DNA of 64,000 nucleotides from an uncultured Clostridia bacterium (GTDB lineage Bacteria > Bacillota > Clostridia > Oscillospirales > CAG-272), in contig CALXUV010000046.1 of the NCBI GenBank assembly GCA_944391815.1, positions 20,195 to 84,194 on the forward strand, in the 5' to 3' direction. This document shows, piece after piece, positions 599 to 21,879 of the stretch (within the stretch, counting starts at the first letter, position 1; each line of letters opens with the position of its first letter). A program made the translations under genes and the position numbers. Below the pieces are notes generated by a model. The model had not been told where the DNA came from, did not search any database, and saw only the letters and a program-made list of their open reading frames with translations.

Positions 599-638
599 AA
601 AATGCACCGCTCAAATTTCATCAGGCGGTGCATTTTTT
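599..638. terminator. Probable intrinsic terminator
   Basis: AAAATGCACCGC-N14-GCGGTGCATTTT perfect 12-bp inverted repeat downstream of the 879-1382 gene. Confidence 0.65.
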
Positions 639-878
639 AATAAATTTATCTGATTACATGCAAATGATATTTTTAATAGCAAAAATGAGCTTTAACATGT
701 ACGAAATTAACATTTTACAAAATTTGTCTAGAGAACGAATTAATACTTTAGATCATTATGAATTACATTTTGCAAAAAACAAATTTCATTTAAGTGAAAT
801 ATTCTATAAGGATTATCAAATGAAACAAAAACTGATTTTTATATCTGTTTATAAGTTTTATGCACTACAAACACATCT

Positions 879-1382: not shown

Positions 1383-1383
1383 C

Positions 1384-2301
1384 TTAATACCACCCTGATC
1401 CTAAACTTGAAACTACCGATGAATATACCGCATATCTCATCAAGTTTTTAGTTGCAGTAATTTTCATTTGATTAGTAGCTTCTGTCTTAAGCAGACCAAA
1501 TATTTGATCATATCCCCAACTTTTGAATGAATTTCTCGAAAAGTTATCTTCTCCTATCATACTCCATATTTTTAATGATTTCTTTTTAGCGCTCATGTTC
1601 GCGATTTTTTGGGCTTTCGAAGATAATATATTAATTTGCTTTGATACTTTTATATGCTTTACTATATCACTCATCCCTTTACCAACTACGTTGGCTATTC
1701 CTCCTATGCAAAAAGCTAATGCTACTGATTCCAAACTATTAACTGAACCACTTATTAATCCACCTGAAACAGACGCTAATCCTCCTAGTAGAAAAGCTCC
1801 TAAGTAACTAATGAAACCGCTACCCAGTGGAATAGATGATATTGCTCCAGAAATTCCGCCACCTAATGTAGACAATCCAATTTGTCCCCAATCCCATTCT
1901 CCTGCATTCCAGCCATTTGCATTAACCTGCTTTGCGACCTCAAAACCGCCACCTATAACTGCTCCAATGGCGAAACCTATTGCTATAGAAATTAAAAAAG
2001 AAGAAATTACAAAATTTCCGCTCGGGTCGCTATACATCACCGGATTATTAAGGCAATAAGCATAGAGATTCATCCCGCCAGTAATTGACGGATCAAGGTA
2101 ATATGTACTGTCCGGACTTATAAATCTGCCTGTTCTCGGGTCGTAGTATCTGCTTTGCAGGTAATAAAGCCCTGTTTCTACATCATAGTAATATGATCTG
2201 TATCTTATTGGGTTTTTGTTTCCTATAAACGACGAATCGGTGTTTTCGGTTCCATCGGGATTCAGTACTTTGTGATTTCCCCATGCATGATCTATATTTG
2301 T
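1384..2301 (-). CDS. Orphan Rhs toxin-tip cassette (core remnant plus Gly-rich hydrophobic tip); first ATG at 2073
   Basis: 2018-2288 repeats 3296-3566 of the left Rhs; frame open 2301-1384; motif YAYCLNNPVMYSDPSG followed by a novel C-terminus. Confidence 0.85.
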   Translation of the reverse strand, partial: TNIDHAWGNHKVLNPDGTENTDSSFIGNKNPIRYRSYYYDVETGLYYLQSRYYDPRTGRFISPDSTYYLDPSITGGMNLYAYCLNNPVMYSDPSGNFVISSFLISIAIGFAIGAVIGGGFEVAKQVNANGWNAGEWDWGQIGLSTLGGGISGAISSIPLGSGFISYLGAFLLGGLASVSGGLISGSVNSLESVALAFCIGGIANVVGKGMSDIVKHIKVSKQINILSSKAQKIANMSAKKKSLKIWSMIGEDNFSRNSFKSWGYDQIFGLLKTEATNQMKITATKNLMRYAVYSSVVSSLGSGWY

Positions 2302-2727: not shown

Positions 2728-5700
2728 CTATTCAAAATTTTTTTGATCATTCAACAAACCAAATATAAGAGTAAAGTAATAATGCCAATGAAAATATTTA
2801 CTATTTTTGGGGACACTGGGATGAAAATGCCACCCTTTGCCGTGATTTTCAGGTCCCCTAGGTTTCTTTTTTCCTCCCTTTCTGAACGCCTTTTCATATG
2901 CTTGCTTTTTAGAATTATTTTTGATTCTTGGCGCAACTGGCTTACGTTCATACAAATAAACAAGCCCAGCAACAGCAGCTGCTGTACCTGCAATTTGAGC
3001 TCCTGTAACGGTTGCGGAAGTTGCAACTAATGTATTTCCCACTACATGGGGTAATCCGATCGAAAAACTACTCGCCAGAAAACTCCCCATCATCGGAGCT
3101 GTTATTCCTACTGCCGCGCCTATTCCAGCTCCTACTACTCCTCCTATTACCGTATTTTTTATATATTCTCCTACACTCTTACTTCCGTTAAACACCTGAC
3201 CGTCATCTTTATAATCCGAATATATTGTTCCTCCGAATCCAATTGCTGCACCTGCTGCTAATCCTACTAAAACTAAAGTCAATATAAGCGAATTCCCGCT
3301 CGGGTCGCTATACATCACCGGATTATTTCCGCAATAAGCATAAAGGTTCATGCCGCTGATCATTGACGGATCAAGGTAATCTGCGCTGTCCGGACTTATA
3401 AATCTGCCTGTTCTCGGGTCGTAATATCTGCTGTGCAGGTAATAAAGCCCTGTTTCTACATCGTAGTAATATGACCTGTACCTTATCGGGTTTTTGTTTC
3501 CTATAAACGACGAATCGGTGTTTTCTGTTCCATCGTGATTAAGTACTTTGTGATTTCCCCATGCATCGTATACATATGTTGCTATAAGCTGTTTGTCGTC
3601 GTGTGACGGTACATATCTTATCAGCTCTACTACATCTCCCTGTAGGTTCTTCTGGTAATAGTAATATGTATCGCCTATGTGGAATCCTATTATTCCGTCT
3701 ACTCCGTATATGTACTGGATAGTGTAACCCGTATACGGCTCCTGCCTGTCTTCCAGTCGCAACTTTCCGTCTACATATTCATACTTTATGCTGTTCTTGC
3801 CGGTTCGGTTTCCTTCGGAATCGTAGGTGAACGTGTTTGAACCGTATCCGGTCAGCCGCCTTATATCCCAGCTGAGCGAATTTCCTCGGTAAAGTACAGG
3901 CTTACCTTTCGAGTCGTAAGTGATATTGTCAATCTGTGTACACATGCAAGTAACGGGATTACATTCAGATACACTGATGAGTCGGTTATCAAAGTTAAAC
4001 CCACTACCATTATATACCATTATGTATTTTTTGTCAAGCATATAATCGTAAAGCGGCGATCTCGAATACGGATATTCCTTTTTAACCGTCATATTTCCTT
4101 TATCATCATACTCATATGTGAAAGTTTTGTTCAGCAGGTAGTTATCTTCTCTTGATATTCGGTTTTTATCATCATACTCATAATATGCCGTGCCGGCGTC
4201 TTCTGCACGGAAATTAATAATATCCTGATTTTCAGGTTCACAGTACACATATCTTGAATGTAACTGTTCTTTTATATTTCCTAATGAATCGTACGTATAA
4301 TTTATGGTATTGTTTTCTGAAGGGTAAAGGAGATTACTGTATTTTATCTCTTCCAAACGATTTCCTGAATTGTAAGTAAACTGTTCCTTAAGTAATTCTT
4401 TTTCAAAAGAATAAGTAGTTATTTTTCTTTCGGTAACACGGTTAAAAGAATCTTTCACTATTTTATTTCTGACTATGGAGTTATAATCGACTTCCAATAG
4501 TTCGTCACCGGGGTAATAGATATAACCGTATGGATAGTCAGGAGGCGTCTGGGCTTTTCTGTATATGTAATCATAATTTTGAACATTATCACTACCCAGA
4601 TTCAGATAATCTCCCAAGATACGCCCTTTTTGCATATAATCGTAATCGTATGAACGATAATATTCTCCGTATTGTGCATCTATTGCGGCTTTGTAAATAT
4701 TGGTCAGATATCCGCTTGTTTCTTCATACAAGTACTTGTATTTTTCAGATTTCTGATAATCGAAAAATTCCTTTACACGGTAAAACGCATCGTATTTTGT
4801 AACACTCACAACGTTATTGTTTCTCTTTTTTTCAACCGGATTACCCATCGGATCCAAAAGCACCGAAACAGTATCGTTACCGTACTTTCGTGTAATACGC
4901 ATACTGCCGTCGTCGTATTCCTCATATTCACTTATCTCGTATTTTATATACTGAGAACCAACAGAGCTTTCTATTCCGGCTTTGTCGTATTCATATCTCG
5001 TTCTCTGGCCGTTGCTGTTGACTTCAGTCAGATAACCCTTAGTATAACCGAAATTGTGATAAATCTGACCGTTATAAAGTTTGCTCAGACTTCCGTCTGT
5101 TCCGTATTCGTAGCATGTCGTTTCTTTTCCGCCGACTGTAACCTTTTTTATCTTTTTACTGTTATCATAATATTCATAATCTGTTGAACTATGATTTTCA
5201 GTATGGTGCGTAGGCAAAAATTCTTTGTATCCGCTGCCTTTTTCTGCATAAGTTGTCTCAAAAACAACTTTTGTAGAATCATTTTCCCCTATAATTATTT
5301 GTTTCGTAGGCTTTTTGTTTTCATAATGTGTTGAAGTTTTGTAACCGTAATAATCTTGTACTTCTACTCTTTCGGGAATTGTGCCATCTTTTTTGTAGTG
5401 AATTGTTGTTTCAATGAACGCCTCATTATTTTTATTTATCAGTTTGTTTTCAGTTATAGTTTTTCCTTTTTCTTTTTCTTTTTGAGTAGTCGTTGTAGTC
5501 TTGTAATATCCGTCGTCCTGAACCGCTTCAACTATCATCCCTCTATCATCTACGCAGTAACGGCAGACATTCGGTATATTTCCGTTTACCGAAACTATTC
5601 TCGGATCGTTAATATAGCAAGTACCGGATACATCAGTTTCAAATTTGAAAGTTATACGATCAATATAATTGTAAATAATTTCACCTTTCTTTACACCGTC

Positions 5701-8553
5701 TACGATTTCTTCTCTTTCATTGGTAAAACTATTACAGACAGCTCTTACCGCAACTGCCGCAAACTGCCATCCTGTGAAAGATTTATCGATTTTACATTCA
5801 AATGTTTCTGATGTTCCGTTTGAGTAGTACGGTATGGCGTAAAGTCTGACATTTCCCGAATAATCGGAAGAGCTTGCGTTTACCTTTACCCATGCTGAAA
5901 CCACATAAGTATTTCTACCGGAATTTGCAAATACAGTTTGTTTTATGCCGGCTGTTCTTCCTCCGCTGACGGTTAAAACACCGGAATTTTTGGCAGGATT
6001 ATATTTGACTGAATTCTGAACAGAAAAATATCCTGCCTGCGGCACTACCCAACCGTCACTGGAAGAATTGACCACATTGTATTTTGAACTGTTCACTTCC
6101 GGAGTCACCGAAAAATCCGGAAACTTCACATCATTTTTAAGATTTGTTTCTATAACAGTATTACAAAGCATCGAGCTGGGTTTATAAAACGCTCCGAAGC
6201 TGCCCACAGTGCTGTTTTCATAAGTTTTTACTTTGCATGGCGTTTCGCTTCGGTCTCCGACATGAGGATACTTGTCGGAAACTGTATAGTTTTCAAAATC
6301 GTTATACTGTAGCACGTTTCGTCCTTTGTCATCAAAACGGTAAACCGTCTTTATTCCGCTTTTTCCGTAGACGGCGGTGGTATTTGAACTTCTGTATTCA
6401 AAATTCACCTCGTCCAGTACTTCACTTTCTAAGATTGAAGCCTGCGGTACACTTCCATTTGATATGTATTTGTACATATTTTTCTCTACTATCGATGTGA
6501 CGCGTCCGTTGTCGTCATAACTTATAATGTATCTGATTCCGGATTCCGTTTTTATTTCTGTTATACGGTTCAAGGTGTAAACAAAATCTGTCACGTCTCC
6601 GTTATGCCGCGATATTTTTGTGATATAACCGTAAGCATTGCAACTTAAATTTGTCCTGTTGCCGCTGCTGTCGGTAATTGCACTCGGACCATAGGTTCCG
6701 TAATCTATTACAAACATTCTTCCCTGGTTCGCTTCCTGACCGTGTCTGCAACCTTTTACCTCGGTCAGACGTCCGGATGAATTATAATAATAATAGAATT
6801 CTTCTCCGTCATCGTATTCTTTTATCGACTTGATTTTTTGATTTTCGAATGTGATTTCGTCGCCTTTTTCAGGGACGGATTCACGGCTGAAAATCAATTT
6901 TTCCGGGGTTTCTCCCGATGATGCGAAATAGGTCGCCTGAATTCCGGTTGACTCGACTACATACCCGCCTTTTCTCTTCATAAGATGTCTCTTACCTTCG
7001 CCGTCAGCATAAAATTTCACAATATTTTCATTATTACTCGGCGCATCCACAAGTCTCTGTTCAACAGAAAATTTCCAATCGTCAAACATTTCTGTTTCTT
7101 TGTCGTAAATCATCGAAACAGGGAATGGCAAAAAGCTTTCCTCAGTATCAAGGGTAGGAACCGTAACGCTTAAATTTCCGGTACTCAGATTTACTTTTGC
7201 AACTCTGTTTGCACCCATGTCAAGAGTGTAATATTCCTGATCAGTCTTAAAATCTTCGTACGGCTCGTTTACCCGATATGAAACATAAAGCGCAGGTGTG
7301 TTTGAAGATGCATACTCGGAATAAAATTCGAGTACCGACGAACATGGATCACACGGATTGTTCTGCGACGATCTTATAAGAACTCCGTTGTTAGGCTGAC
7401 CGTTTAGCCAAGAGTTAAACGCATTTGATATTTCGAGCTGACCGAAATGAACAAATGACTCGTAAATTCCGCCGACCGGCGGTCTGAAATTCCAAAGAAG
7501 ACATCTGTTTTCCCAATCTTCTTCAAGCGTGTTTGTCTCAAGATATCTGAGTCCGCTGTCTCCTATGTATTTTACTTTTATTGCAGCTCTTACGTTACTT
7601 GCGCCTGCCGGAAGTTCAATCTTGCTCATGTCAACTTTAAAATATGTTTCATATTTATCAACATCATAGTTGCAGCAACCGTAATCGGTGACATCCAGTC
7701 CTATCCGACGTGTAATCATGTATTCCGGCTGATAATCGCCGTTTGAGCATACCGACTGAGATCTGATACAGCCGGAAATGTTGTCGCTGACATATACAGA
7801 CGGATCAATTTTGACCGGGAATACTCTTTCTTCCGATTCAATCCACTTTTTATCGGGCAAAACTGTGAAAATGTATTCGCTTTCAGTTATTTTTTCAAGA
7901 CTGTAATTTACTTTCCTGCTTGTTTTTCCTGCGCCGTCTTCCATAAACATTTCAGGCATTGTAAATCGCGGAATATCATTTTCTTCTCCTACGGGAGTTA
8001 CAAAACTAAGTCTACCCTCTTCTTCCCTTAGAACACATCCGTCAAGATTTAATCTGAATCTGAATTTATAGGACTTTTTCTTAGCTCTTAATGTTATCAC
8101 CTCTTTAAGTCCCATGGTATTGAATGTGTATGAAATATCAGCATTCTGGGATATTCCGGAGTATGTCACCTGTCCCTGATTTATGTCGCTTATGCCGCCG
8201 TAAGTTTCTCTTATCCTGTTTATTTTACCTTTGTTAAAGCGCTTTTTGGATGAGAGATACGTTATACTGAGTGTTACCCCGTCTTTTTTGATTTCAGCAA
8301 GTTTCTTATCTTTTTCCGGAGACGATGCGAACTTTACCTTCAAATCTCCTTTTTTGTTTTGGTAACAATCTTCTGCTTCATAAAGACTGTTATCAACAGT
8401 ATGAAATTTCCCGTCTTTTTCATCAACAAAATGAATAGGCGTGTTGTATATTTCGGCAAGAAAGCTGCCGTCCTTCATTTTATAGTGTTTCTGATTTGCT
8501 TTTCTTTTGCTTTTATCTTCACTTATTATTTGATTATTCAGTATTTTTTCCAT
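2728..8553 (-). CDS. WapA-like Rhs/YD-repeat polymorphic toxin (DNRLRE-like N-terminal region, CBM-like middle domain, Rhs core, His-rich C-terminal toxin)
   Basis: 1941 aa; YD repeats; NPIRYRSYYYDVETGLYYL..RYYDPRTGRFISPD and PVMYSDPSG core motifs; WapA-like N-terminus (KDGSFLAEIYNTPIHF...VDNSL); GAAAGGA RBS. Confidence 0.93.
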   Translation of the reverse strand: MEKILNNQIISEDKSKRKANQKHYKMKDGSFLAEIYNTPIHFVDEKDGKFHTVDNSLYEAEDCYQNKKGDLKVKFASSPEKDKKLAEIKKDGVTLSITYLSSKKRFNKGKINRIRETYGGISDINQGQVTYSGISQNADISYTFNTMGLKEVITLRAKKKSYKFRFRLNLDGCVLREEEGRLSFVTPVGEENDIPRFTMPEMFMEDGAGKTSRKVNYSLEKITESEYIFTVLPDKKWIESEERVFPVKIDPSVYVSDNISGCIRSQSVCSNGDYQPEYMITRRIGLDVTDYGCCNYDVDKYETYFKVDMSKIELPAGASNVRAAIKVKYIGDSGLRYLETNTLEEDWENRCLLWNFRPPVGGIYESFVHFGQLEISNAFNSWLNGQPNNGVLIRSSQNNPCDPCSSVLEFYSEYASSNTPALYVSYRVNEPYEDFKTDQEYYTLDMGANRVAKVNLSTGNLSVTVPTLDTEESFLPFPVSMIYDKETEMFDDWKFSVEQRLVDAPSNNENIVKFYADGEGKRHLMKRKGGYVVESTGIQATYFASSGETPEKLIFSRESVPEKGDEITFENQKIKSIKEYDDGEEFYYYYNSSGRLTEVKGCRHGQEANQGRMFVIDYGTYGPSAITDSSGNRTNLSCNAYGYITKISRHNGDVTDFVYTLNRITEIKTESGIRYIISYDDNGRVTSIVEKNMYKYISNGSVPQASILESEVLDEVNFEYRSSNTTAVYGKSGIKTVYRFDDKGRNVLQYNDFENYTVSDKYPHVGDRSETPCKVKTYENSTVGSFGAFYKPSSMLCNTVIETNLKNDVKFPDFSVTPEVNSSKYNVVNSSSDGWVVPQAGYFSVQNSVKYNPAKNSGVLTVSGGRTAGIKQTVFANSGRNTYVVSAWVKVNASSSDYSGNVRLYAIPYYSNGTSETFECKIDKSFTGWQFAAVAVRAVCNSFTNEREEIVDGVKKGEIIYNYIDRITFKFETDVSGTCYINDPRIVSVNGNIPNVCRYCVDDRGMIVEAVQDDGYYKTTTTTQKEKEKGKTITENKLINKNNEAFIETTIHYKKDGTIPERVEVQDYYGYKTSTHYENKKPTKQIIIGENDSTKVVFETTYAEKGSGYKEFLPTHHTENHSSTDYEYYDNSKKIKKVTVGGKETTCYEYGTDGSLSKLYNGQIYHNFGYTKGYLTEVNSNGQRTRYEYDKAGIESSVGSQYIKYEISEYEEYDDGSMRITRKYGNDTVSVLLDPMGNPVEKKRNNNVVSVTKYDAFYRVKEFFDYQKSEKYKYLYEETSGYLTNIYKAAIDAQYGEYYRSYDYDYMQKGRILGDYLNLGSDNVQNYDYIYRKAQTPPDYPYGYIYYPGDELLEVDYNSIVRNKIVKDSFNRVTERKITTYSFEKELLKEQFTYNSGNRLEEIKYSNLLYPSENNTINYTYDSLGNIKEQLHSRYVYCEPENQDIINFRAEDAGTAYYEYDDKNRISREDNYLLNKTFTYEYDDKGNMTVKKEYPYSRSPLYDYMLDKKYIMVYNGSGFNFDNRLISVSECNPVTCMCTQIDNITYDSKGKPVLYRGNSLSWDIRRLTGYGSNTFTYDSEGNRTGKNSIKYEYVDGKLRLEDRQEPYTGYTIQYIYGVDGIIGFHIGDTYYYYQKNLQGDVVELIRYVPSHDDKQLIATYVYDAWGNHKVLNHDGTENTDSSFIGNKNPIRYRSYYYDVETGLYYLHSRYYDPRTGRFISPDSADYLDPSMISGMNLYAYCGNNPVMYSDPSGNSLILTLVLVGLAAGAAIGFGGTIYSDYKDDGQVFNGSKSVGEYIKNTVIGGVVGAGIGAAVGITAPMMGSFLASSFSIGLPHVVGNTLVATSATVTGAQIAGTAAAVAGLVYLYERKPVAPRIKNNSKKQAYEKAFRKGGKKKPRGPENHGKGWHFHPSVPKNSKYFHWHYYFTLIFGLLNDQKNFE

Positions 8554-8599
8554 TTTTAATTCCTTTCTTTTTTTATTTTTTAATGATGTTTTTTAATTG

Positions 8600-9649
8600 T
8601 CAATCCTTATACTGTATTTTTATTATCTGCGGGTGACAGTAACTGTCAGCAGTAGATATAGCAATATTTTTCTCTTTTTTTATACTTTTCAGCATATATC
8701 CGTAATTTTCTAAATCAGTAAAAGATTCGGTTATGTCAGTTTTAAAAAACTCACCGGCATCCATAAGCAGCTGAAATTTTTCGCTAGTCTTTGGCATATT
8801 GTCCCAGCAGGTATTAAAAGTACACCACGGCTGAAGAATTTTGTACACTCCGATTTCCGATGTATCTGATCCGAACTTTGGAATAAAAATCTCGGCTTTT
8901 TCCGGTTTGCCGATTCCTCCGAACGCACCGCTGAAAAAACCTGTTCTGAAAAGCAGTCTTTCTTCATTTCCGTTACTTTCACCCAAAGAAGAATAACTGC
9001 CGTAAACGTTGTTTACAGAAGGGAATGCACTTTCAACAGTTGTATCGAATATCAGTTTAGGTAAATAAAGGTTTATTTCAGCCGTCAGTTTTTTCACTTT
9101 TTCTTTGGCAAAAATTCTGACTTTGAAACGCCTTTCTTTTATTTCTGTTGCTTCCACGAATGCCTTTACAAATATGCCTTCGAACTTTTCTGCCGGAGCA
9201 GGAGTAACCGTTATAAACGGGACATGTTTTGCGTACATGAGTGTAAAACTCCTGGTATTCTCTCTTCTTATGTAAGGGTATTCGGTTTCAAGAGTAAAAA
9301 CGATATCACCGTTTTCAGAACTTAGATTGATACCGTTTAACCCGGGAAATACTTGATATTTTTCTTCTGTTTTTATTACTGCACGGTCAATGCTGTTTTC
9401 AAGAACAGCTCTTTTTCCGTAAAAGGATATTTCCGCGTCTGCTCCGCTGAAAACTTTTTTTCTGCCATCAACTCCCCATTTCAGGTCTACAAGTTTTCTC
9501 TCGTCAAGGGAATAAATAGGAACGGTAAAAATATATGCCGTATTTTTTCCTCTGTGTTTTCCCAAAATACGGTACGGATTTCTGAATTTGTCTTCTTGTA
9601 TTTTGATTTCTTCGTTTTCGGTTTTGCTAATCATTTCAATAAAGTTCAA
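8600..9649 (-). CDS. Stand-alone paralog of the Rhs N-terminal/DNRLRE-like region
   Basis: TTG start with AAAGGAGG RBS; DTTVES..P..N.YG and W...TCWDNMP motifs resemble DNRLRE domains; no YD repeats. Confidence 0.65.
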   Translation of the reverse strand: MNFIEMISKTENEEIKIQEDKFRNPYRILGKHRGKNTAYIFTVPIYSLDERKLVDLKWGVDGRKKVFSGADAEISFYGKRAVLENSIDRAVIKTEEKYQVFPGLNGINLSSENGDIVFTLETEYPYIRRENTRSFTLMYAKHVPFITVTPAPAEKFEGIFVKAFVEATEIKERRFKVRIFAKEKVKKLTAEINLYLPKLIFDTTVESAFPSVNNVYGSYSSLGESNGNEERLLFRTGFFSGAFGGIGKPEKAEIFIPKFGSDTSEIGVYKILQPWCTFNTCWDNMPKTSEKFQLLMDAGEFFKTDITESFTDLENYGYMLKSIKKEKNIAISTADSYCHPQIIKIQYKD

Positions 9650-10176
9650 TTAAACACCTCCTTTCATTTACTTAATTTGCGTATCAAGCGCTTAAAGATT
9701 TTATTTTATCTAAATCAGTTACTAATTGTATTTATCAGACAAAAAATAATTCGCGAAACGCATTTTATTAATAAAACAATTTATAACCATTCTGTGTTTG
9801 AAACAAGCAACTTATTTTATTATCGATAAATCAAATTTCCTATAAAACACATTAATCAACGAGATGACAATCATTAAAGGTAACCTTTTTGATTCATTCA
9901 AAAAGACACATCAGAGAATAAAAATGTTACCAATGAAGTTATATCAGCTCAGAAATATACTGCAACAAGTTGACAGATGTGAACTATTCGGGTTTACTTA
10001 GTTGCTCGGTTATTTGGTTAAATATAAATAGTAAAATTATTTCGATAAACTTCATCCTTTTCTACCAAGTGAGTATTCAATTTATACTCAAAATTACTTT
10101 TTTTGAGCTGATTTGTTTAATTCATACTCATAAATAATATTTGCTTTTTTCTGCCGTTACTTGTTTAACTATGCTC

Positions 10177-12294
10177 TTAAATTTTCTCGCTTTTTTCAAT
10201 CGGAATGATATATCTTCCGGTCATCGGATCATAGTACTTTCCCCAATCATAGTAAAATCCCGTTTCAGTATCGTAGTACATTCCTCTGAATCTTATCGGA
10301 TTTATATTCCCAATAAAATCCGGATCTGAAACTATATTGTCCTTACCATCAGTGACAGCAAAACATCCTGTACAATCATAGACATATTCCGCTACTGTTA
10401 TGGAAGTCATACTTCTTGTATCATACAAAATAATTCCGGTTACATCCATAAATAAATTTTTACGGTAAAAATAATACTCACCTTCGTAAGAAAATCCTAT
10501 AATTCCGTTTGAACCGTAAATGTAATGTATAATTTTATTTCCGTTTTTTTCTGACAGCAACCTCCCGCTGTCGTAAAAATACTTAACTTCATTTTTTTCA
10601 GTTCTTTTTCCAAAAGCGTTGTAAGAGTATCGGTTATTCCCGAAAGCGCTTATCAGTTTGTCTGACGAAAGTCTAACCTTCATGTTTCTGTACTTGCTTA
10701 ACTCCCCTTCATCGCTATAAACTGTATTTTCACGTAAAACTCTGCCGCTGTTTTCCTGAATATATGTAATATAACTAAGTGTCTTGTCGCTGCCCTGCAC
10801 CGTTTTTACAGAAGCACCGAACCATGACCTTAAAGTTCCGTTCGAATTACATACATTATCCCGAATAGCAACACTATCACCCATAGACTTCTCTGATGAG
10901 GGCCGATTATAAATATCAATTTTGCTGTTCTGGTTTGTTACATTATAATAATGATATTTGTCACTTAAATCCGGAAAATAACTTGTATTTGGCGCTACGA
11001 CTTCATTTGACGGATAGCCTGAATTTCGTGTCACGACTGTATCTTTATAAAAAATTGAATTATAAATACCACAGGAATTCAGAAGACAAGTCAAATTTGA
11101 TTTATTCTCCGTTTTTACTTTCTTGTTTCTGATTTTACCCGATTCATCATAACTCAAATAAACAGTACTGCCGAAAAATTTGTTTTCTTCACGTACAAGC
11201 CTTTCACTTTTATCATAAAAATAAGAAGAAGTACCGTTGTTTCTGAGAAAATAAACTCCGTCCTCATCAATTCCATAACTGCGGACAATAAGTTTTTTAC
11301 CGTTCAAAGCCGAATGGTAATCGGTATACTCAGGATTTTTGCCGAACCAGTGGCGTTTCAGAACAAAACCCCCATCATTTTCAAAATTACTGAAACTTGA
11401 AGAAACAATAAGCAAGTTTCCGTTATAGCTTTGTACAACTGTTTTTTCGTTTCCGTCACTGTCTTTTTCCGTAATTTCTTTACATAACATCCCGGTTTCA
11501 AAAATCTGAATATTTCTGCTGTTTTTGCGAGTTTTCTTCGCCGAACCTGCTATATCAGCCTTGCATTTCACGGATTTTTCCGGATAAACATTTTCATAAT
11601 ATCTGAAATCAAAGGCTGTTTTTTTCAAATCATTATCTACACCGTATGAAACAGAATAGATTTTTTTGCCATTTTTCTCTTCGAAGTTATATTTTGCCAC
11701 TGTTACAGGAGAATTTTTTTCATCACCTATGTATTTTGTAATTTCAGTACATCGGGTACCTTGAAATTTACCTTTCTTATCCCGGTCGTAGGCTTTTATA
11801 TTTTCATTTGACATAATTGATCTTTCAGTTTTGTAAGTACAGAAATTTTGCTGGGTATAATCTTTAATTTCAAACTCTGTTCCTTCTGGAGAATAGTTTA
11901 TTTCAAGTATTCGTTTACTCTTATTAAAAAGTGAAATTGACTTCTGTTTTCCTTCATTATATTCAACAGTAAGTAAAAATCCGGTTTTGGTTTTAATGGA
12001 AATTATTCTGCCATTTTCAAAAAAAATTTCTGCAAAAGCATTTTCGCTACAATCGTCTGATTTATAAATATATTCAACAATAATTTTGTTATTAAGTAAA
12101 ACAAATTCCGGCTTTCCGTCAACAGTTTTCGTATATTTAAAATTCTTGTACATTTTCTCATCTGCAATGAGTGAAATGCTTAAATCCTGTTCAGCGTCAA
12201 AAAAATCTTCCGGTTCCGATATACATCTGATTACTCCGGTTGACAACTCAACCCCAAAACGTTTTTCATTTTTCGGTATAATGTAATTTTTCAT
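10177..12294 (-). CDS. Short Rhs-like protein (shell only, no toxin tip)
   Basis: N-terminus VELSTG resembles VNLSTGNL of the left Rhs; C-terminal ~170 aa align with the Rhs core (YIYGSNGIIGF, NPIRFRGMYYDTETGFYY, YYDPMTGRYIIP), then the ORF stops. Confidence 0.8.
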   Translation of the reverse strand: MKNYIIPKNEKRFGVELSTGVIRCISEPEDFFDAEQDLSISLIADEKMYKNFKYTKTVDGKPEFVLLNNKIIVEYIYKSDDCSENAFAEIFFENGRIISIKTKTGFLLTVEYNEGKQKSISLFNKSKRILEINYSPEGTEFEIKDYTQQNFCTYKTERSIMSNENIKAYDRDKKGKFQGTRCTEITKYIGDEKNSPVTVAKYNFEEKNGKKIYSVSYGVDNDLKKTAFDFRYYENVYPEKSVKCKADIAGSAKKTRKNSRNIQIFETGMLCKEITEKDSDGNEKTVVQSYNGNLLIVSSSFSNFENDGGFVLKRHWFGKNPEYTDYHSALNGKKLIVRSYGIDEDGVYFLRNNGTSSYFYDKSERLVREENKFFGSTVYLSYDESGKIRNKKVKTENKSNLTCLLNSCGIYNSIFYKDTVVTRNSGYPSNEVVAPNTSYFPDLSDKYHYYNVTNQNSKIDIYNRPSSEKSMGDSVAIRDNVCNSNGTLRSWFGASVKTVQGSDKTLSYITYIQENSGRVLRENTVYSDEGELSKYRNMKVRLSSDKLISAFGNNRYSYNAFGKRTEKNEVKYFYDSGRLLSEKNGNKIIHYIYGSNGIIGFSYEGEYYFYRKNLFMDVTGIILYDTRSMTSITVAEYVYDCTGCFAVTDGKDNIVSDPDFIGNINPIRFRGMYYDTETGFYYDWGKYYDPMTGRYIIPIEKSEKI

Positions 12295-12618: not shown

Positions 12619-15600
12619 ATGGAAAATAACAAAAAGAAAACAGATATTAAGAACATCGGTATACCGAAAATACCTGATAATTTTAACATTTTTCCGGAAA
12701 TAACGGAAAATGACATAGATCATGAGGACGTTAATGGCAGAACTTCGTTCAAAAAAAGATATATTTTAAAAAACGGGAACATTGCCGATATTTACTTTGG
12801 AAATATACTCCACCGCATTTCAGGTACATCCGATAAATGGGAAGAAATCGATAACTCTTTCGAGGAAATAGGAGATTTTTTCGAAAATAAAAAAGGGCTT
12901 TTCAGAACACAGTTCAGAAAAATCCCGTCGGAAAAATCAAATTTATTTCAGATTGAAAACAATAAAAGAAAAATCGGGTTTGAATTTTTATCAACAAAAA
13001 AGAAAAAGTTCAGACCAGGTAAAGAAGAAAAACCAAAAAGCAACTCTTCTTTCGAAAAATCAGCAGCCGGTCACACCTGCGGCAAAATAAGGTATCCGGA
13101 AATAACCGGAAACGTAGATCTTGAATACACTGTGACATCAGCCGGCGTTAAAGAAAACATCATTATCAAATCTAAGAAAAGATCATACATTTTTTCTTTT
13201 AAAATAAAACTCGATGGTTATACGATTACAAAAAAAGACGGCCGCATGGAATTCGGATTTACCGGAGAAAACGGTGAATATACACCTGAATTCAGACTTG
13301 CACCTTTATTTATGACAGACAGAACCGGTGCTGCAAGTTCAGATATCAGTTATTCACTTACTGCTCTTGGAAAAGATGAATACATGCTTACAATAAAGCC
13401 GGACAGCGACTGGATAAACAGCAGTGAACGTATTTTCCCGGTAAAAATCGATCCTACTATTGAATATCTGACATCACAAATCACCAACATTACTTCGGTT
13501 TCATATTCTTCAAACTACGATTATCTCGGCGGTATGTTCGAACAATACCGCAAAGTAGGATATGACGAGCAGGATAACGAATATATAAGCTATTTTAAAG
13601 TTTCGACTGAGCCCATACCTGAAGGTTATGAGGTAAATCAAGCGTATATGAAAATATTTACATCCGAAAGCCGGGGAATATTACTTGACGTTTATCCTCT
13701 TGATATCAACTGGAGTTTTGAATATCCTTACTTTTATGATACTGATCAGAATGCGATTGCAAGAGGCATACACGGCGGAGGCTACGAAACGCGCATAGAC
13801 GTAACCTCAGCTTATGCACGTTGGGCTCGTAACCCAAGCGAAAATTACGGTTTCCTCGTTAAATCGTATTACAACTGTTGCGATTCATGTTCTGACGTAT
13901 GGCAGTTTTATTCCGAAGAAAGCGAATATCCGCCTGTTTTTGTCGTTGAATACAGAGCTTCTGCCGAAAACCGAAAATTCAGACCTGAGCATGAAACAAT
14001 CGAAATCGATATGGGATTAGCCGGTAACACCAAAGTTGATCTTTTTAACGGCGGAGTAATTATTCAAACTCCTGACCTAAAAACCAAGGACGGCAAAACC
14101 GTACCCATGACAAGCCTTCTTTTTAACAATGACGCCGTCGAACGTTCCTCTGTTATGAAAGATAAGTGGAAGACGATAAGAGATTTTAAATTAGAATTAA
14201 AACACGATAATAAATTAAACACTGATTTTATAAAATACACCGATATATTAGAAAATCTGACCATCTTAGATAATAAATATCCCTCGGCAAATCTGTTTTA
14301 TACACTGGATGGTTTGTCTTGTCTGCAAACATCAGAAAAGGACCCTGTACATAACACCGATATCAGTGTGTTCAGATTTACTGATGCTTCCGGCAATATG
14401 TGGAAAATAACACCCGAATGTTATTTTTACACCGCAAAAACCGGTGAAGTCTACAAATATAGCAAAGTAATTGCTTCAAATAGTTATAATTGCAGTCAAT
14501 GCGAAAATAAAACATACTGTGAATGCTATAACGCTCAGAGTTGTCCGGATGGAAGCTCATGTTGTTCACAATGTCATGTCGAAACCAAAAACTGCACAAA
14601 AATTGCCATTATTGAGGATAATAACGACAACATTTATGAAATTTTCAAAGATAATGCTGACACCCTTTGCATAAGAACAACCGGCGAAGACTCCTATATT
14701 GTGGCAAAATATCAGTTTTCAGGCGGCAAACTTTCAAAAATCACCTATTGGAACGGTGACTTTGCAAATTACAGTTATAATTCACAAAACCGGATAAGCG
14801 AAGTTTCTGACAGTAACGGAATCAGGTTTACCTTTGATTATTACAATAGTGAAATCCGAACACAGCAATATGCCGTTGCGCTCATCAGAAAAAATCCGCT
14901 TTACTCTTTGATTACAGACTCACGGACTGTTAATGCCAACACAAATCGAGATCAATTGAGTTTTACTTATTATTCTGACAGAACATCAGTCAAAAATTCG
15001 ACTGGTATAAAAACAGTTTATGTTTTCGATAATGAGGGGCGTGGAAATGTTGTATATACCGATAAAAAAAATACCGGTCTTTCAATCGGAAAATCAACCC
15101 CGACAAATATAAGTACTTATAGAAAAAAATTTAACAGCAGTACCACTAGATACAAGTTTTTGGAAGTAAGCGAAAACAACGACGAAAGAACTAACCTGCT
15201 TGGTGATACCGACTTCAGTAATGTCATCAGATCAAACGATATAGTAAATTCAAGAAGCTGGTATTGCTCAAGTCTGACCCAGCAGATCAGCAACCTGAAT
15301 TATGTTCCGAACACGAAATCATTCAGGCTACAAGTCGGGAAAATTTCTCAGAAGATCAGCATGGATGTTTTTAACCTCCAGGGTAATATGTTGATTTTCT
15401 CGGTGTGGGCAAAAATTGAATCAGATGCCTACAGTTTGTCCGCAAATCCACCGAAAGTAACCATCAAGCGAACATATTTAAGACCGGACGGTACAGAAAC
15501 TGAATTTAACTATTCGAATTGTAATATTTCGAGCAACATGAATGAGTTCAGATTCGATCTGTCGTATGATGATTGGCAGTACGCTGCAATCCCGATAGAG

Positions 15601-18588
15601 CTATTTGCTGATTTAGGCAAAGACGAAAATTGCAGACTTAAAGAAATTACCGTAGAACTTGCTAACCTCGGAAACTCAGCTGACGCTGTTTATTTCAATA
15701 ATCCCAGATTGTCTGAATGCTACGGAGTAAAACTTGAAAATTACATCAAATCATCTGATCCTGCATCTACGTCATCGGCTGTAACTCCTAAAAAAGAACT
15801 TTATTACAAAAGAGACGACGGCACTTTCATAACAACGCTTTTCGCTGATGATAAAATGAATATAGTCAAGGAAGAAAAAATAAAGAAAAACAACGGTGAT
15901 CCGTACATTACGACATTTGAATATTATGATAATAACAGACTGAAAAAAACTGTCGACTATAAAGGAATCCCGACAACTTTCGAATACAACGAAAAGGGAC
16001 AGGTTACCAAAAAAACAACCGGTGAAGATGAAAAAGCTTTGAGCATCAACTACGTTTATGATGAAAATCTTAACCTTATTTCCGAAACAAATGAATACGG
16101 AATTGAGACGGATTACGAGTATGACGAACTCAACAGACTAAGAAAAATTACCGATTCAGGTAACAAGACGACTTATTTTTCCTACAATTCAAAAAATCAG
16201 CTGATCAAGGTATCATCTGAAGAAAACCCTTCCGAATCAGCTGACAATTCCAACACTTTGAGTTACAATAAAGGACTTAATACCGGCATGTCAGTTTCCG
16301 GGAATGAATATAAAATCGATTTTGACGGAGAAGGCAGAAAAAAGCAGGTTTGGCTTAACAACCTGACTCTTGCAAGTTATGAATACGGCTCGCGTTTTAA
16401 CACATCTTATACCGACAAAATCACCCCATGTGTCGGTAACAGTCAATTTATTGAATACAACGCAGCAGGCGATCCGAAGCAATCATATTATTACGAAGGA
16501 GGCACTCAGAAATACATAAATAAATTCGAATACGACTGTAACGAAAAATTGTTCAGAGTTTTTGATTACCCGGCAAATAATAAACTGGAATTTACTTATG
16601 ACAAATACGGCAACTTAACTAATGTAAAAAAAGCAAATTCTGTCGATAGCACGAGCTTCAGCCCGTATGTTTCGTACACTTATGATTATGATCATAAAAA
16701 CATGCTGACATCTTATACACTGCACTCAGCCAAAGAAGACGGCAGATCGTATAACTTGTTTTATGACAAATACGATATCAGTTATTCAAACGGAAGCACC
16801 ACTCCGAACGACTATGAAATAGAAACTCTTGAAGATGAAGTAAACAAAGTAAAGGCTGTAGGATTTGGAAGCGAAGAACGTCAGAAAGATTACCATTCGA
16901 GAACTACTAAAAAAATATTGATTAATGATAGTGATCAACCTATTGACGAATGTTCGTATACATATGTATACAACACTCATTCAACCGGTTTCAGCATCAC
17001 AGCTGATCGATACGGCAGAAAACCCGATGAGAGCAATAGGTGTGAATATTATACATCCGACGCATCAGGAAACATAAGTAATTTTTATACCTGCGGAAAA
17101 AAATATATAAACAGTAACAACGGTACAGATAACTATGAAGACATAAACTGTACAGATAATTCATATACATACGACAATTCAAACAGGCTTATCTGTCATG
17201 AAACTGACTCGAAAAAATATGAATTCACTTACGACAACAGAGGAAATATGACAGAAAAGAAAATTTACAGCAAAACTCAAAACGATCCCTCAACTGATTA
17301 TACACTTGACAAAATTTACATATACGGTTATAATAACACCGGAACGATCAAGGACACTTTGATGTCGGTAACCGAAAAAAGCGGATTAGAAGACACCGGA
17401 ACGATACTTTATCAAAATGAGTACAACTCCGGCGGATTTCCGACTGAATACCGTGGAAAGACTGTTGAATTTGACGGTCTTAATCAGCTTTCAAGTTACG
17501 GCGATCTGAACTTTTCTTACTCCGCATCCGGAATGCGGCTTACTAAGGGCGATATAACGTACGATTATTACGGCGATCTGCTGATAAAAGAAACAAAGCA
17601 GAATTCATACACAATTGAATATATACACGGAATAAACGGACTTATCGGATTTGTTTACAACGGAACGCCTTACTATTACATCAAAAATATTTTCGGTGAC
17701 GTATACTTTATTATTGACAGAAACGGCAACACTGTAGCTGAGTATGAATACGATGCTTGGGGTAAATGTACAATAATAAGTGAAACAGGCGGCATCGGAA
17801 CAGTTAACCCGATACGTTACAGATCGTACTACTATGATGTAGAGACAGAATTTTATTACCTCCAGTCAAGATATTACGACCCTGAAAATGCAAGATTTAT
17901 AAGTCCTGACAAAACAGATTATCTTGACCCTCAGTCTTTCGGCGGGCTTAACCTGTATGCGTATTGTCTTAACAATCCGGTTATACATAGTAAAGAATCC
18001 GTTGTTTTTGACGGTTCATCCGATATTTTATCAATCTCAGCTGATGAATCTATTGGATTTAACAGCAAGCAATGTGGAAATAGTTCTGCTTTATTTAATA
18101 ATGTCATAGCCAGTGGTTCATTTAAAAATGGATTATTATTCGGAAAAGGGATACTAACCGGCTTATATTTCAGCGGAAATTCAAGAATACAAATAAGCTT
18201 AAAAAACAGAAAATTAATTTTAGGGACTTTTGGAAAATTTTCACTACTTAATGCTACTGGACAAATTGGAGTCGGCAATGATATTTTTAACGTTTCATTA
18301 GTTGGAGTTGGAGATATTGGAAACATCAGTGGCATGGCTGGTTTACTAATAAATCCACATAAAAATACATACTTTGCCGGTATAGAAGCAAAAATTTCTG
18401 TATTTAGTGCCCGTGGCGGAGTACAATTTGAAATTTTTAATACACAAATTGAAATGGGTGGATCCGTAAGCGCATTGTCTGCGGGAATTCAATTTGGAAT
18501 CGGAATTAAAAATGGTGAATTTTATTATAAAAGTGGATTTGCTTTGTTGTTTGGTTTTGATTTTTATATAAGAATAAAATTTGCATAG
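12619..18588 (+). CDS. Second WapA-like Rhs/YD-repeat polymorphic toxin, divergently transcribed
   Basis: 1989 aa; AAGGAG RBS; same architecture as the left Rhs; core motifs NPIRYRSYYYDVETEFYYLQSRYYDPENARFISPD; Gly-rich beta-strand C-terminus. Confidence 0.93.
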   Translation: MENNKKKTDIKNIGIPKIPDNFNIFPEITENDIDHEDVNGRTSFKKRYILKNGNIADIYFGNILHRISGTSDKWEEIDNSFEEIGDFFENKKGLFRTQFRKIPSEKSNLFQIENNKRKIGFEFLSTKKKKFRPGKEEKPKSNSSFEKSAAGHTCGKIRYPEITGNVDLEYTVTSAGVKENIIIKSKKRSYIFSFKIKLDGYTITKKDGRMEFGFTGENGEYTPEFRLAPLFMTDRTGAASSDISYSLTALGKDEYMLTIKPDSDWINSSERIFPVKIDPTIEYLTSQITNITSVSYSSNYDYLGGMFEQYRKVGYDEQDNEYISYFKVSTEPIPEGYEVNQAYMKIFTSESRGILLDVYPLDINWSFEYPYFYDTDQNAIARGIHGGGYETRIDVTSAYARWARNPSENYGFLVKSYYNCCDSCSDVWQFYSEESEYPPVFVVEYRASAENRKFRPEHETIEIDMGLAGNTKVDLFNGGVIIQTPDLKTKDGKTVPMTSLLFNNDAVERSSVMKDKWKTIRDFKLELKHDNKLNTDFIKYTDILENLTILDNKYPSANLFYTLDGLSCLQTSEKDPVHNTDISVFRFTDASGNMWKITPECYFYTAKTGEVYKYSKVIASNSYNCSQCENKTYCECYNAQSCPDGSSCCSQCHVETKNCTKIAIIEDNNDNIYEIFKDNADTLCIRTTGEDSYIVAKYQFSGGKLSKITYWNGDFANYSYNSQNRISEVSDSNGIRFTFDYYNSEIRTQQYAVALIRKNPLYSLITDSRTVNANTNRDQLSFTYYSDRTSVKNSTGIKTVYVFDNEGRGNVVYTDKKNTGLSIGKSTPTNISTYRKKFNSSTTRYKFLEVSENNDERTNLLGDTDFSNVIRSNDIVNSRSWYCSSLTQQISNLNYVPNTKSFRLQVGKISQKISMDVFNLQGNMLIFSVWAKIESDAYSLSANPPKVTIKRTYLRPDGTETEFNYSNCNISSNMNEFRFDLSYDDWQYAAIPIELFADLGKDENCRLKEITVELANLGNSADAVYFNNPRLSECYGVKLENYIKSSDPASTSSAVTPKKELYYKRDDGTFITTLFADDKMNIVKEEKIKKNNGDPYITTFEYYDNNRLKKTVDYKGIPTTFEYNEKGQVTKKTTGEDEKALSINYVYDENLNLISETNEYGIETDYEYDELNRLRKITDSGNKTTYFSYNSKNQLIKVSSEENPSESADNSNTLSYNKGLNTGMSVSGNEYKIDFDGEGRKKQVWLNNLTLASYEYGSRFNTSYTDKITPCVGNSQFIEYNAAGDPKQSYYYEGGTQKYINKFEYDCNEKLFRVFDYPANNKLEFTYDKYGNLTNVKKANSVDSTSFSPYVSYTYDYDHKNMLTSYTLHSAKEDGRSYNLFYDKYDISYSNGSTTPNDYEIETLEDEVNKVKAVGFGSEERQKDYHSRTTKKILINDSDQPIDECSYTYVYNTHSTGFSITADRYGRKPDESNRCEYYTSDASGNISNFYTCGKKYINSNNGTDNYEDINCTDNSYTYDNSNRLICHETDSKKYEFTYDNRGNMTEKKIYSKTQNDPSTDYTLDKIYIYGYNNTGTIKDTLMSVTEKSGLEDTGTILYQNEYNSGGFPTEYRGKTVEFDGLNQLSSYGDLNFSYSASGMRLTKGDITYDYYGDLLIKETKQNSYTIEYIHGINGLIGFVYNGTPYYYIKNIFGDVYFIIDRNGNTVAEYEYDAWGKCTIISETGGIGTVNPIRYRSYYYDVETEFYYLQSRYYDPENARFISPDKTDYLDPQSFGGLNLYAYCLNNPVIHSKESVVFDGSSDILSISADESIGFNSKQCGNSSALFNNVIASGSFKNGLLFGKGILTGLYFSGNSRIQISLKNRKLILGTFGKFSLLNATGQIGVGNDIFNVSLVGVGDIGNISGMAGLLINPHKNTYFAGIEAKISVFSARGGVQFEIFNTQIEMGGSVSALSAGIQFGIGIKNGEFYYKSGFALLFGFDFYIRIKFA

Positions 18589-18599: not shown

Positions 18600-19145
18600 A
18601 TGAACAAACATTATTACAACTTAGGTAATACTTTTAAAGTAAAAATTCGTAAACATTATTGCTATAAATGTAAAACAAAATTATCTATTGCTAAACATTA
18701 TAAGGTCGTATCGCAAAAATCCATTGATGCTAAATATTATGATTTCAGCATTGGCATTGATGGTGGAGAAATGATAGGGCCATGTGAGTTTATTCATAAC
18801 GTATTTTATTGTCCTAATTGTAGTGAATTTATAGAATTTATAACGCAATTAAATTTCGAAGACATCGATAATTGGATAAAAAAACTTAACAATAAATTAT
18901 TTAAAAAAGGACACAGCATTGAAATCAAAAAAACATATGAAACAAAAGAAAATAAATATATTGATAAAATAGATTCTTTGGACAATATTAAAAATCTTTG
19001 TTTACGAGTTCATAAAAATGATAAGACCATAATTATTACCAAATTTCCGTTAATACGAAAAAAAAATTGGGAACGTCCTTATTATTTCAAAATTAATAAA
19101 AAAGAATTTATGAAATCTATTAGAAAACATTTTGTTAAAGTGTAA
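18600..19145 (+). CDS. Putative cognate immunity protein with CxxC...CxxC
   Basis: 11 nt after the Rhs stop, AGGA RBS, AT-rich; CYKC and CPNC motifs. Confidence 0.7.
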   Translation: MNKHYYNLGNTFKVKIRKHYCYKCKTKLSIAKHYKVVSQKSIDAKYYDFSIGIDGGEMIGPCEFIHNVFYCPNCSEFIEFITQLNFEDIDNWIKKLNNKLFKKGHSIEIKKTYETKENKYIDKIDSLDNIKNLCLRVHKNDKTIIITKFPLIRKKNWERPYYFKINKKEFMKSIRKHFVKV

Positions 19146-19346: not shown

Positions 19347-20243
19347 ATCGATTTATTAAATTCATTAGAGTGTACAATAATAAGTGAAACAGGCGGCATC
19401 GGAACAGTTAACCCGATACGTTACAGATCGTACTACTATGATGTAGAAACGGGGCTGTTTCTAGTAACCTCACGCTACTATGATCCAGAGGTCGGACGTT
19501 TTATTTCACCAGATACCAATGAATATCTTGATCCTGAAACAATCGGTGGGCTTAATCTTTATTCCTATTGTTTGAATAACCCAATAAACTATTATGACCC
19601 TGACGGTCATTGGGCAATGCCTAATTGGTTGAAATGGGTAATTGGTGGAGTTGTTATCGTTGGTCTTGGAATTGCAGCTGCACTCACTGGAGGTGCAGCG
19701 GGCGTAATATTAGGCGCCGCATTTTATGGCGCAGTAACAGGCGCGGTTAGTGGGGCTTTGGTAAGTGGTGTAATCGGGGGAATATCTTCTGCGGTTTCTG
19801 GTGATGGTTTTTGGAGTGGTTTTGCAGATGGCGCCGCAGATGGTTTTATGTTTGGTGCAATTATTGGAGGTGCTACTAGTGCGTTAACAGCGGGTATAAA
19901 TATTGCTACTGGTGCCGTTAAAATAGTTGGCACAGCACAAAAAACGGGTTCGATATTTCATCGTTTTGCCAGCAACATTCAAGCTGGCAAAATGTCAATG
20001 GCTATAGGAAGATATTCGGAAATCCATCTGAATCGAAGTAAAGGATTGGGAATAAAAGGTTTTAGACCAGATGTTACTGGAATTACAAAAAATGGGTTAA
20101 GAATTGTTGAGGTTGTAAGTTCAACTCAAACATACGCTAGCCAAGTTACTAAGGTTACAACTATGATGGGAAGATATTCACATGTAACAAATGGATTAGT
20201 TCTTGATGGTTTGCATTTGTTGCTAAAATGGTTCGTTTTCTAA
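19347..20243 (+). CDS. Orphan Rhs toxin-tip cassette, putative PD-(D/E)xK-like nuclease tip
   Basis: 19371-19447 identical to 17767-17843; frame open from 19347 (ORF-track start 19572 is TTG); DPDGH motif; C-terminal RPDV...VEVVS..Q. Confidence 0.8.
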   Translation: MDLLNSLECTIISETGGIGTVNPIRYRSYYYDVETGLFLVTSRYYDPEVGRFISPDTNEYLDPETIGGLNLYSYCLNNPINYYDPDGHWAMPNWLKWVIGGVVIVGLGIAAALTGGAAGVILGAAFYGAVTGAVSGALVSGVIGGISSAVSGDGFWSGFADGAADGFMFGAIIGGATSALTAGINIATGAVKIVGTAQKTGSIFHRFASNIQAGKMSMAIGRYSEIHLNRSKGLGIKGFRPDVTGITKNGLRIVEVVSSTQTYASQVTKVTTMMGRYSHVTNGLVLDGLHLLLKWFVF

Positions 20244-20261
20244 ACTAAAGGAGAAGATTTT

Positions 20262-21876: not shown

Positions 21877-21879
21877 AGT

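Follow-up and report, generated by a model that had tools for sequence, protein, structure and literature searches.

Does a cluster of genes beside a full-length Rhs toxin gene encode one split Rhs machine, or does it bring together genes of different standing? The question is raised by a locus of an uncultured Clostridia bacterium that lies in a 64,000-nucleotide stretch of contig CALXUV010000046.1 (C46:20195–84194, the window; the assembly has 2.35 Mb in 81 contigs). Three adjacent genes, all on the minus strand, are read there in the 5' to 3' direction: an open reading frame (ORF) of 705 amino acids (aa; 12294 to 10177), a 349-aa ORF that follows a 527-bp spacer (9649 to 8600) and, 46 bp downstream, a 1941-aa Rhs gene (8553 to 2728; the left Rhs), behind which lies a 129-aa ORF. 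A second Rhs gene (the right Rhs) is divergent from the 705-aa gene across 324 bp of intergenic DNA. A reading of the sequence alone had correctly located the two smaller ORFs with their intact frames, and had seen in them an empty Rhs shell and a detached N-terminal module serving as dedicated subunits of the Rhs. The analysis described here makes a different account likely. The 349-aa gene would be a conserved accessory of the left Rhs, the 705-aa gene would be a species-restricted Rhs derivative, and the two would not be parts of one machine. The features discussed below are the following, each with the evidence that defines it.

8600..9649, minus strand: 349-aa ORF, stand-alone paralog of the Rhs N-terminal module, of a family encoded directly upstream of Rhs (homologs, gene order, hhalign, AlphaFold2 model)
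8603..9052, minus strand: C-terminal half of the 349-aa protein (residues ~200–349), CBM96/DNRLRE-like beta-sandwich (DNRLRE_dom, CBM96, Foldseek)
10177..12294, minus strand: 705-aa ORF, toxin-less, N- and C-truncated Rhs-derived gene of a single species (ORF and translation, Shine–Dalgarno sequence, allele cluster)
10201..10731, minus strand: residues 522–698 of the 705-aa ORF, its sole demonstrable Rhs part, ending before the DPxG aspartyl-protease motif (BLASTP, hhalign, TIGR03696, PDB matches)
9650..10176, no strand: AT-rich non-coding spacer of 527 bp between the 705- and 349-aa genes (no ORF of at least 60 aa on the gene strand)
2728..8553, minus strand: left full-length leaderless Rhs, 1941 aa, partner of the 349-aa gene (RHS_repeat, complete TIGR03696, YD repeats)
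12619..18588, plus strand: right full-length Rhs, 1989 aa (RHS_repeat, TIGR03696, DNRLRE_dom)
6546..10921, no strand: segment of 4376 bp deleted in one strain lineage, L036–L039 (blastn of four metagenome contigs)

The stand-alone N-terminal module

The 349-aa gene starts with a TTG codon preceded by a GGAGG Shine–Dalgarno sequence. BLASTP finds no similarity between its product and the left or right Rhs, and the relationship is visible by profile comparison only. In hhalign, the 349 family (25 members) aligns collinearly with 13 Rhs N-termini over 258 columns (Prob 95.8, E 7.3e-9), matching residues 98–349 of the 349-aa protein to residues 140–430 of the left Rhs at about 11% identity; the left Rhs has an N-terminal module (N-module) of its own, which is the part that aligns to the family. 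The DNRLRE-like resemblance to the N-terminal region of Rhs noticed from the sequence is borne out by this alignment. Close stand-alone homologs of the 349-aa protein are 327–363 aa long and 43–53% identical to it. More weakly related homologs, likewise full-length, are carried by 20 of the 201 genomes of the bacterial family, from 16 of its 97 genera, and other Clostridia families have them as well. A scan of GTDB genome contigs with the single 349-aa protein found nothing, and a scan with a smaller alignment (A5) had a metagenome-assembled genome of a sister genus as its sole match.

Across the Clostridia, the usual gene order is a CYTH gene, a 349-like gene and, 14–46 bp downstream, a large leaderless Rhs. 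On the contigs of the five close homologs, a large Rhs-like gene follows the 349-like gene after 14–18 bp wherever the contig extends that far, and CYTH precedes it in all except L005, where the contig starts at the 349-like gene. The order CYTH, 349-like gene, Rhs is found in L001, L003–L008 (with no CYTH visible in L005), L041, L049, L052, L072, L073 and L075, and a 349-like gene lies directly upstream of Rhs in L011, L055, L056, L058 and L059. Most of the partner Rhs proteins retain their own N-module, and the 349-like gene is therefore an extra paralog rather than a piece split off from Rhs. The 349 family is an ancient paralog of the N-terminal module of Clostridial leaderless Rhs proteins. 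The idea that the 705- and 349-aa ORFs together approximate one Rhs minus its toxin fails on these grounds, namely the age of the paralog, its low identity and the N-modules kept by most partners. The Rhs that follows the closest 349 homolog (L005:1081–1600) has no beta-sandwich/CBM96 N-module and begins with ~170 aa of Cys-rich CxCxCGD-type repeats, followed by the pre-shell linker and the shell; in this locus, the N-module is present only in trans, as the 349-like protein.

CYTH-domain genes of 205–244 aa precede the 349-like gene in L001, L006–L008, L041, L049, L053 and L072–L075, which belong to several Clostridia families. CYTH is a triphosphate-tunnel enzyme, encoded here beside a Rhs toxin, and the shared gene order suggests that CYTH, 349-like gene and Rhs are a three-gene unit. 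One metagenome contig (L006:1319–1636) has a Phage_holin_5_2 gene just upstream of CYTH, 349-like gene and Rhs, which may be a hint at the exit route of the leaderless Rhs. In L073 (G452:C90, 1314–3806 and 12315–13526), two tandem 349-like genes stand before one Rhs and a third stands before a second Rhs of that contig; the 349 family thus duplicates along with its Rhs partners.

The AlphaFold2 (AF2) model of the 349-aa protein is all-beta (pLDDT 92.3, pTM 0.91). The window protein has no Pfam match, and it does not reach the curated cutoffs of PF24517 and NF033679; the latter profile (NCBIfam DNRLRE_dom) aligns at positions 2–147 of 164 with residues 202–330 (E 0.023, 14.7 bits against a cutoff of 34). 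Within the 349 family, Pfam CBM96 matches 4 of the 25 members (best E 7.5e-5), and the right Rhs has a DNRLRE_dom at residues 297–443 (E 1e-9). The best PDB matches of the model in Foldseek are chains B and A of 8WAB (E 6e-5, prob 1.00, 173 aligned columns, TM score 0.59 normalised to the target), a chondroitin-sulfate-binding carbohydrate-binding module (CBM), and the model has the beta-sandwich fold of CBM96. No signal peptide, PAAR, LXG or LysM was recognised in either Rhs or in the 349-aa protein from their N-termini by eye and from Pfam and NCBIfam matches, and no Pfam family, including DUF1795 or another known chaperone domain, was found in the 349- or 705-aa protein.

Members of the 349 family are leaderless all-beta proteins in which an N-terminal beta-sandwich region is joined to a CBM96/DNRLRE-like domain. 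The 349-aa protein is presumably made together with the Rhs and would provide the surface- or glycan-binding N-module a second time, in trans, either as a lectin-like co-receptor or as a wall-anchoring and adaptor subunit. In Streptococcus suis, the N-terminal fragment of WapA with its DNRLRE domain is the cell-wall-binding part (PMC12704120), which fits a surface-binding role of the 349-aa protein. For the left Rhs, the 349-aa protein is most likely an accessory that acts in trans and binds a surface or a glycan. Its gene combines homology to the Rhs N-module, this fold, a conserved gene order and purifying selection. Literature searches turned up no account of a Rhs N-module paralog encoded as a separate gene, nor of a Rhs locus linked to CYTH; the stand-alone N-module is real and conserved, and has apparently not been described before.

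The 705-aa gene

The 705-aa ORF has an AGGAG Shine–Dalgarno sequence 8 nt before its ATG. Its stop codon lies 7 codons after ...YYDPMTGRYIIP (...GRYIIP), so that it ends before DPxG and carries no cargo, as had been read from the sequence; both neighbouring Rhs proteins run on past that point with DP...NLYAYC.NNP. TIGR03696 (Rhs_assc_core) matches the ORF at profile positions 13–46 of 76 only, with 29 bits against a cutoff of 32.5. The ORF stops inside the Rhs-associated core domain and therefore has neither a complete TIGR03696 core with the DPxG...DPxG aspartyl autoprotease motif, nor a C-terminal toxin tip, nor a cognate immunity gene.

The part that can be recognised as Rhs is the core end. 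BLASTP aligns residues ~514–698 to the shell ends of the neighbours, with 42% identity to the left Rhs (E 3e-33) and 40% to the right (E 2e-30); hhalign against a profile of nine full-length Rhs proteins finds the core end at E 6.7e-28; the Rhs-like part corresponds to core residues ~1102–1281 of the left Rhs; and the sequence matches in the PDB, for example 8H8A and 8CP6, are to Rhs core ends only. The whole ORF has ~55% of the length of the neighbours' ~1250-aa shell. In a phmmer search of 1.84 billion representative proteins, ~10,900 matches were obtained. Among the best 150 of these, only residues ~500–700 are covered, save by two near-identical fragments of the same gene (P0007 and P0008), beyond which residues 1–520/521 have no homolog. 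Rhs-like homologs in this set that are long enough, the full-length Rhs proteins, continue well past the point where the 705-aa core end stops, which goes against the proposal of a dedicated toxin-less subunit and in favour of a truncation.

No relatives of residues 1–521 turned up when 200 genomes of the bacterial family, two of them from the same genus, were searched, the matches there being at YD-repeat level only (E 1e-4 to 4e-3); nothing was found in JGI metagenome contigs, and nothing in Pfam even at E<=10. When residues 1–520 are compared with the Rhs profile by hhalign, one YD repeat is detected at 352–393 (E 8e-4) and the other matches are at control level. Pfam RHS_repeat has no match in the ORF; TIGR01643 does have one, strongest at residues 553–568, whose 19.1 bits exceed the cutoff of 15.8 (E 0.0014). 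The ORF had been thought to start where the Rhs shell starts, on the likeness of VELSTG to VNLSTG in the left Rhs; this likeness (E 0.2) is at the level of reversed and shuffled controls. The anatomy drawn by the sequence-only reading is thus largely right, with the recognisable shell of the 705-aa ORF overstated, and its interpretation is half right. The gene would have arisen from an old Rhs gene that kept the last ~180 residues of its shell, the first 520 residues having diverged beyond recognition save for one YD repeat. A recent duplication of a neighbour is ruled out as its origin, because the protein identity of 40–42% is confined to the core end and, at the nucleotide level, nothing else in the genome resembles the 705-aa gene, in line with the little nucleotide identity to the neighbours remarked on earlier.

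Two related sequences may be mentioned here. P0008 (131 aa, from a 519-bp ENA contig) is identical to residues 1–91 of the 705-aa protein and then diverges in a tail without a match in the genome or the loci retrieved; the contig may be chimeric, or the protein may come from a second rearrangement allele. In a sister-genus genome (L042; G078:C21, 146–3136, minus strand), a 997-aa ORF combines the N-part of a Rhs with the shell's first ~750 residues, ends in a stop codon and has no tip. This truncated Rhs ORF is divergent from a 349-like gene, in what is a related locus.

Within the species, the 90% cluster of the gene, which has 33% GC, contains five intact 705-aa alleles from independent assemblies, with no frameshift or stop, and the layout 705–349–Rhs is kept in the other intact strains (L034, L035 and L040). 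Between the window and the most diverged strain, L035, the gene has 28 synonymous and 34 nonsynonymous differences, which corresponds to a ratio of nonsynonymous to synonymous divergence per site (pN/pS) of 0.30 (Nei–Gojobori, P 6e-6). Across comparisons, pN/pS ranges from 0.14 to 0.30; residues 1–520 alone give 0.33 for the window and L035 (P 8e-5), and correction for the transition/transversion ratio (ts/tv) gives a dN/dS (omega) of ~0.44 for the gene (P 1e-3). The flanking non-coding divergence of 6.5–7.2% is near the pS of 7.7% and well above the pN of 2.6% (residues 1–520). Omega is 0.17–0.25 for the 349-aa gene and 0.11–0.22 for the two Rhs genes, compared with ~0.3–0.45 for the 705-aa gene. 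Neutral dN/dS, which would have spoken for decaying reading frames, is seen neither in the 349-aa gene (~0.25) nor in the 705-aa gene, and the truncated 705-aa form is itself under moderate purifying selection. Given this selection, its own ribosome-binding site and the five intact alleles, the gene is probably still translated.

A deletion of 4376 bp is found in four metagenome contigs from two studies (L036–L039), which are identical across the retained part of the 705-aa gene. It joins window position 10922 to 6545 at a 2-nt microhomology (AA), out of frame, and yields ORFs of 464 and 1225 aa. The deletion takes away the 349-aa gene in full, along with the spacer, the 3' third of the 705-aa gene and codons 1–669 of the left Rhs, and the whole left system is dispensable in this lineage.

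Adjacency of the two genes and rival explanations

The spacer between the two genes contains no ORF of at least 60 aa on the gene strand downstream of the 705-aa ORF. It is 92.8% identical to strain locus L035, equal to the synonymous and intergenic divergence, and has a promoter-like site at 9983–9954 on the minus strand (a consensus match only). From these sequence features, the spacer is likely a rearrangement junction together with the promoter region of the 349–Rhs pair. The only CYTH homolog of the genome lies at C46:13553–14176 (plus strand), ~6 kb to the left of the window. It stands at the distal end of the left-Rhs orphan array and points towards the array. Its upstream genes show synteny with L049 and L053, two loci in which CYTH is directly followed by a 349-like gene; in L049 a Rhs also follows, and L053 ends at the contig edge. 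A CYTH remnant was looked for in the 527-bp spacer and not found. The adjacency of the 705- and 349-aa genes is specific to the species and probably due to one inversion of the block of 349-aa gene, Rhs and orphans, which is the simplest explanation. Such an inversion would set the 349-aa gene beside what lay beyond the array, that is, the 705-aa gene and the right Rhs.

A sequence of ~136 bp occurs at C46:14629–14764, 18902–19037 and 20693–20826 (the last being window 499–632). It lies at the 5' edge of two orphan cassettes, with 85–90% identity, and a further copy stands by itself in non-coding DNA just behind CYTH, not far from the presumed inversion breakpoint.

Could the three genes nevertheless be one dedicated split-Rhs system, with the 705-aa protein as an empty cage, decoy, chaperone or assembly partner, the 349-aa protein as the N-module and the full-length Rhs as the toxin? 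They are co-oriented and adjacent, each of the small ORFs has a ribosome-binding site and evolves under purifying selection, the layout is kept in intact strains L034, L035 and L040, and the 349 family does resemble a trans-acting N-module. However, a search of other genomes for the same three-gene layout found no 705-like gene at any of more than 25 other 349–Rhs loci from several families, and residues 1–521 of the 705-aa protein had no homolog outside the species in the searches made. The family-wide neighbour of the 349-like gene is CYTH and not a shell gene, and the proposed inversion would explain the adjacency seen here. The 705- and 349-aa genes are separated by 527 non-coding bp, compared with the 14–46 bp between 349-like genes and Rhs, and no more than 180 of the 705 residues can be shown to be Rhs shell. 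A split system of this kind is quite improbable. Of the accessory subunits proposed earlier, the stand-alone N-module tied to a leaderless Rhs stands, by virtue of the conserved gene order and the L005 Rhs that has no N-module of its own, and the 705-aa protein as a member of the system falls, being absent from those more than 25 loci. No functional tie connects the 705-aa protein with the 349-aa protein or with a Rhs of the locus, and its gene is partly deleted in one strain lineage. A narrower version is given little credence. In it, this one species would have domesticated a partial Rhs shell without a toxin, the 705-aa protein, as an empty cage, cap or decoy that works with the trans-acting 349-aa N-module or with a Rhs toxin; CYTH, 349-like gene and Rhs would then be a distinct Clostridia delivery module, whose receptor-binding N-module can be supplied as a separate subunit.

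Another rival, which seems rather unlikely, takes the 705-aa ORF for a pseudogene without function that an old Rhs has left behind. It would account for a gene that is confined to a single species, truncated at both ends relative to every Rhs, provided with neither toxin nor immunity gene, diverged beyond recognition over residues 1–520, deprived of its 3' third in one lineage and higher in omega than its neighbours. The open frame and the synonymous excess would then be leftovers or sampling noise; with a kappa of 3.4, the probability of no stop arising in 62 neutral changes is still ~0.10. Yet the truncated form is older than the divergence of the strains, and the changes since then are ~2–3x enriched in synonymous ones at the two significance levels given above (6e-6, and 1e-3 with ts/tv correction). 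Nonsynonymous sites have diverged by 2.6%, compared with 6.5–7.2% for intergenic DNA, the frame is free of frameshifts and stops in five independent assemblies of a gene with 33% GC, and a good Shine–Dalgarno sequence and ATG are retained. A role at the DNA level, in which the toxin-less gene would serve orphan toxin cassettes as an acceptor or a homology block in recombination, is highly improbable. The Rhs-like part does match the extent of the core-end segments in the local orphan cassettes, and tips are swapped between strains at this locus, but the core end has 40–60% protein identity and no nucleotide similarity to the local core ends, which makes homologous recombination implausible, and the selection acts at the amino-acid level, residues 1–520 included.

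Several points weigh against the preferred reading of a conserved 349-aa accessory beside a species-restricted 705-aa derivative. About half of the more distant 349-like genes of the family that were sampled (L043–L048, L051 and L054) are not beside a BLAST-detectable Rhs, and the pairing of 349-like genes with Rhs is frequent, not obligatory. Fold similarity at 13% identity, rather than any conservation of binding residues, is the basis of the proposed glycan-binding role. For the 705-aa gene, the strength of selection was estimated mainly from one diverged strain pair (the window and L035, with 62 differences), and omega comes out about twice as high as for the 349-aa gene. The AF2 model of the 705-aa protein, for which the input was five near-identical alleles only, has a pLDDT of 29. 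No inverted repeats were found at the two presumed inversion breakpoints, and the rearrangement history is therefore read from synteny only.

Known systems and implications

Apart from these two genes, the locus is of the classical Rhs polymorphic-toxin kind, in which orphan arrays accompany the main genes and strains exchange tips. Behind each of the two Rhs genes lie arrays of orphan cassettes (core end plus tip), along with small putative immunity ORFs (window 1–2301 and 19347–23680), the true orphans being located at C46:15323–22495 and window 19347–23138. The toxin tip of the left Rhs varies between strains; in L036 (6771–7269) and L040 (18468–18965), the left Rhs carries the tip that is an orphan at window 1–499, with 99.8% and 96.8% identity, which indicates tip swapping by recombination between strains. 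In these respects, two full-length Rhs genes each with immunity genes and core-end-plus-tip orphan arrays, and a tip that differs by strain, the locus resembles the rhs loci of E. coli and Salmonella and the WapA loci of B. subtilis and S. suis. Unlike in those loci, the Rhs proteins here are without signal peptide, LysM, PAAR or LXG. The 705-aa ORF was considered as an orphan cassette and rejected, since unlike the orphans of Rhs/WapA loci it lies upstream of the main gene, has its own Shine–Dalgarno sequence and ATG and 520 extra N-terminal residues, and has no tip or immunity gene.

Vestigial rhs elements are defective core ORFs, such as rhsE of E. coli K-12. The wapA loci of S. suis similarly contain 'truncated duplications' (PMC12704120). 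Like such vestiges, the 705-aa ORF is derived from Rhs, has lost parts of the architecture and belongs to a rhs locus that is prone to recombination. In the known vestiges, the tip is usually retained, as in orphans, or decay is plain, whereas the 705-aa ORF has no tip, is open in five assemblies and has an omega of ~0.3–0.45. To our knowledge, the TcB/TcC pair of Tc toxins is the only well-known Rhs-type shell that is built from two polypeptides, and its split cocoon is the idea behind the earlier notion of a split Rhs. Unlike in TcB/TcC, both neighbouring Rhs proteins have full-size shells, and there is no evidence that the 705-aa protein completes any shell; its detectable homology to TcB/TcC does not extend beyond the generic core end.

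The 349-aa protein has counterparts of other kinds. Modules of the CBM96/DNRLRE type bind alginate and chondroitin sulfate (PDB 8WAB; PMC9971899); the C-terminal half of the 349-aa protein has that fold, and some members of the 349 family match Pfam CBM96. Unlike CBM96 in polysaccharide lyases, the 349-aa protein is stand-alone and leaderless and is fused to another beta-sandwich region, and at 13% identity its ligand binding is predicted only. A DNRLRE-type domain in the N-terminal region of the toxin is shared with S. suis WapA (PMC12704120). Like the EagR/DUF1795 chaperones of type VI secretion systems and the secF-like and srtB genes upstream of S. suis wapA, the 349-aa gene is a small conserved gene immediately upstream of Rhs and probably co-expressed with it. 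In contrast to all of these, it has no relation to them in sequence or fold and none of their Pfam domains, and it is a paralog of the N-module of Rhs itself.

The tempting reading of the locus as a split Rhs machine is thereby removed. The 705-aa gene indicates that a toxin-less Rhs remnant can remain open and constrained within a species, and does not point to a general system. The wider question touched by the locus is how leaderless Rhs toxins are exported, anchored and aimed in Gram-positive gut anaerobes, and the order of CYTH, N-module paralog and Rhs in several Clostridia families offers a concrete candidate for an accessory or targeting subunit of these toxins.

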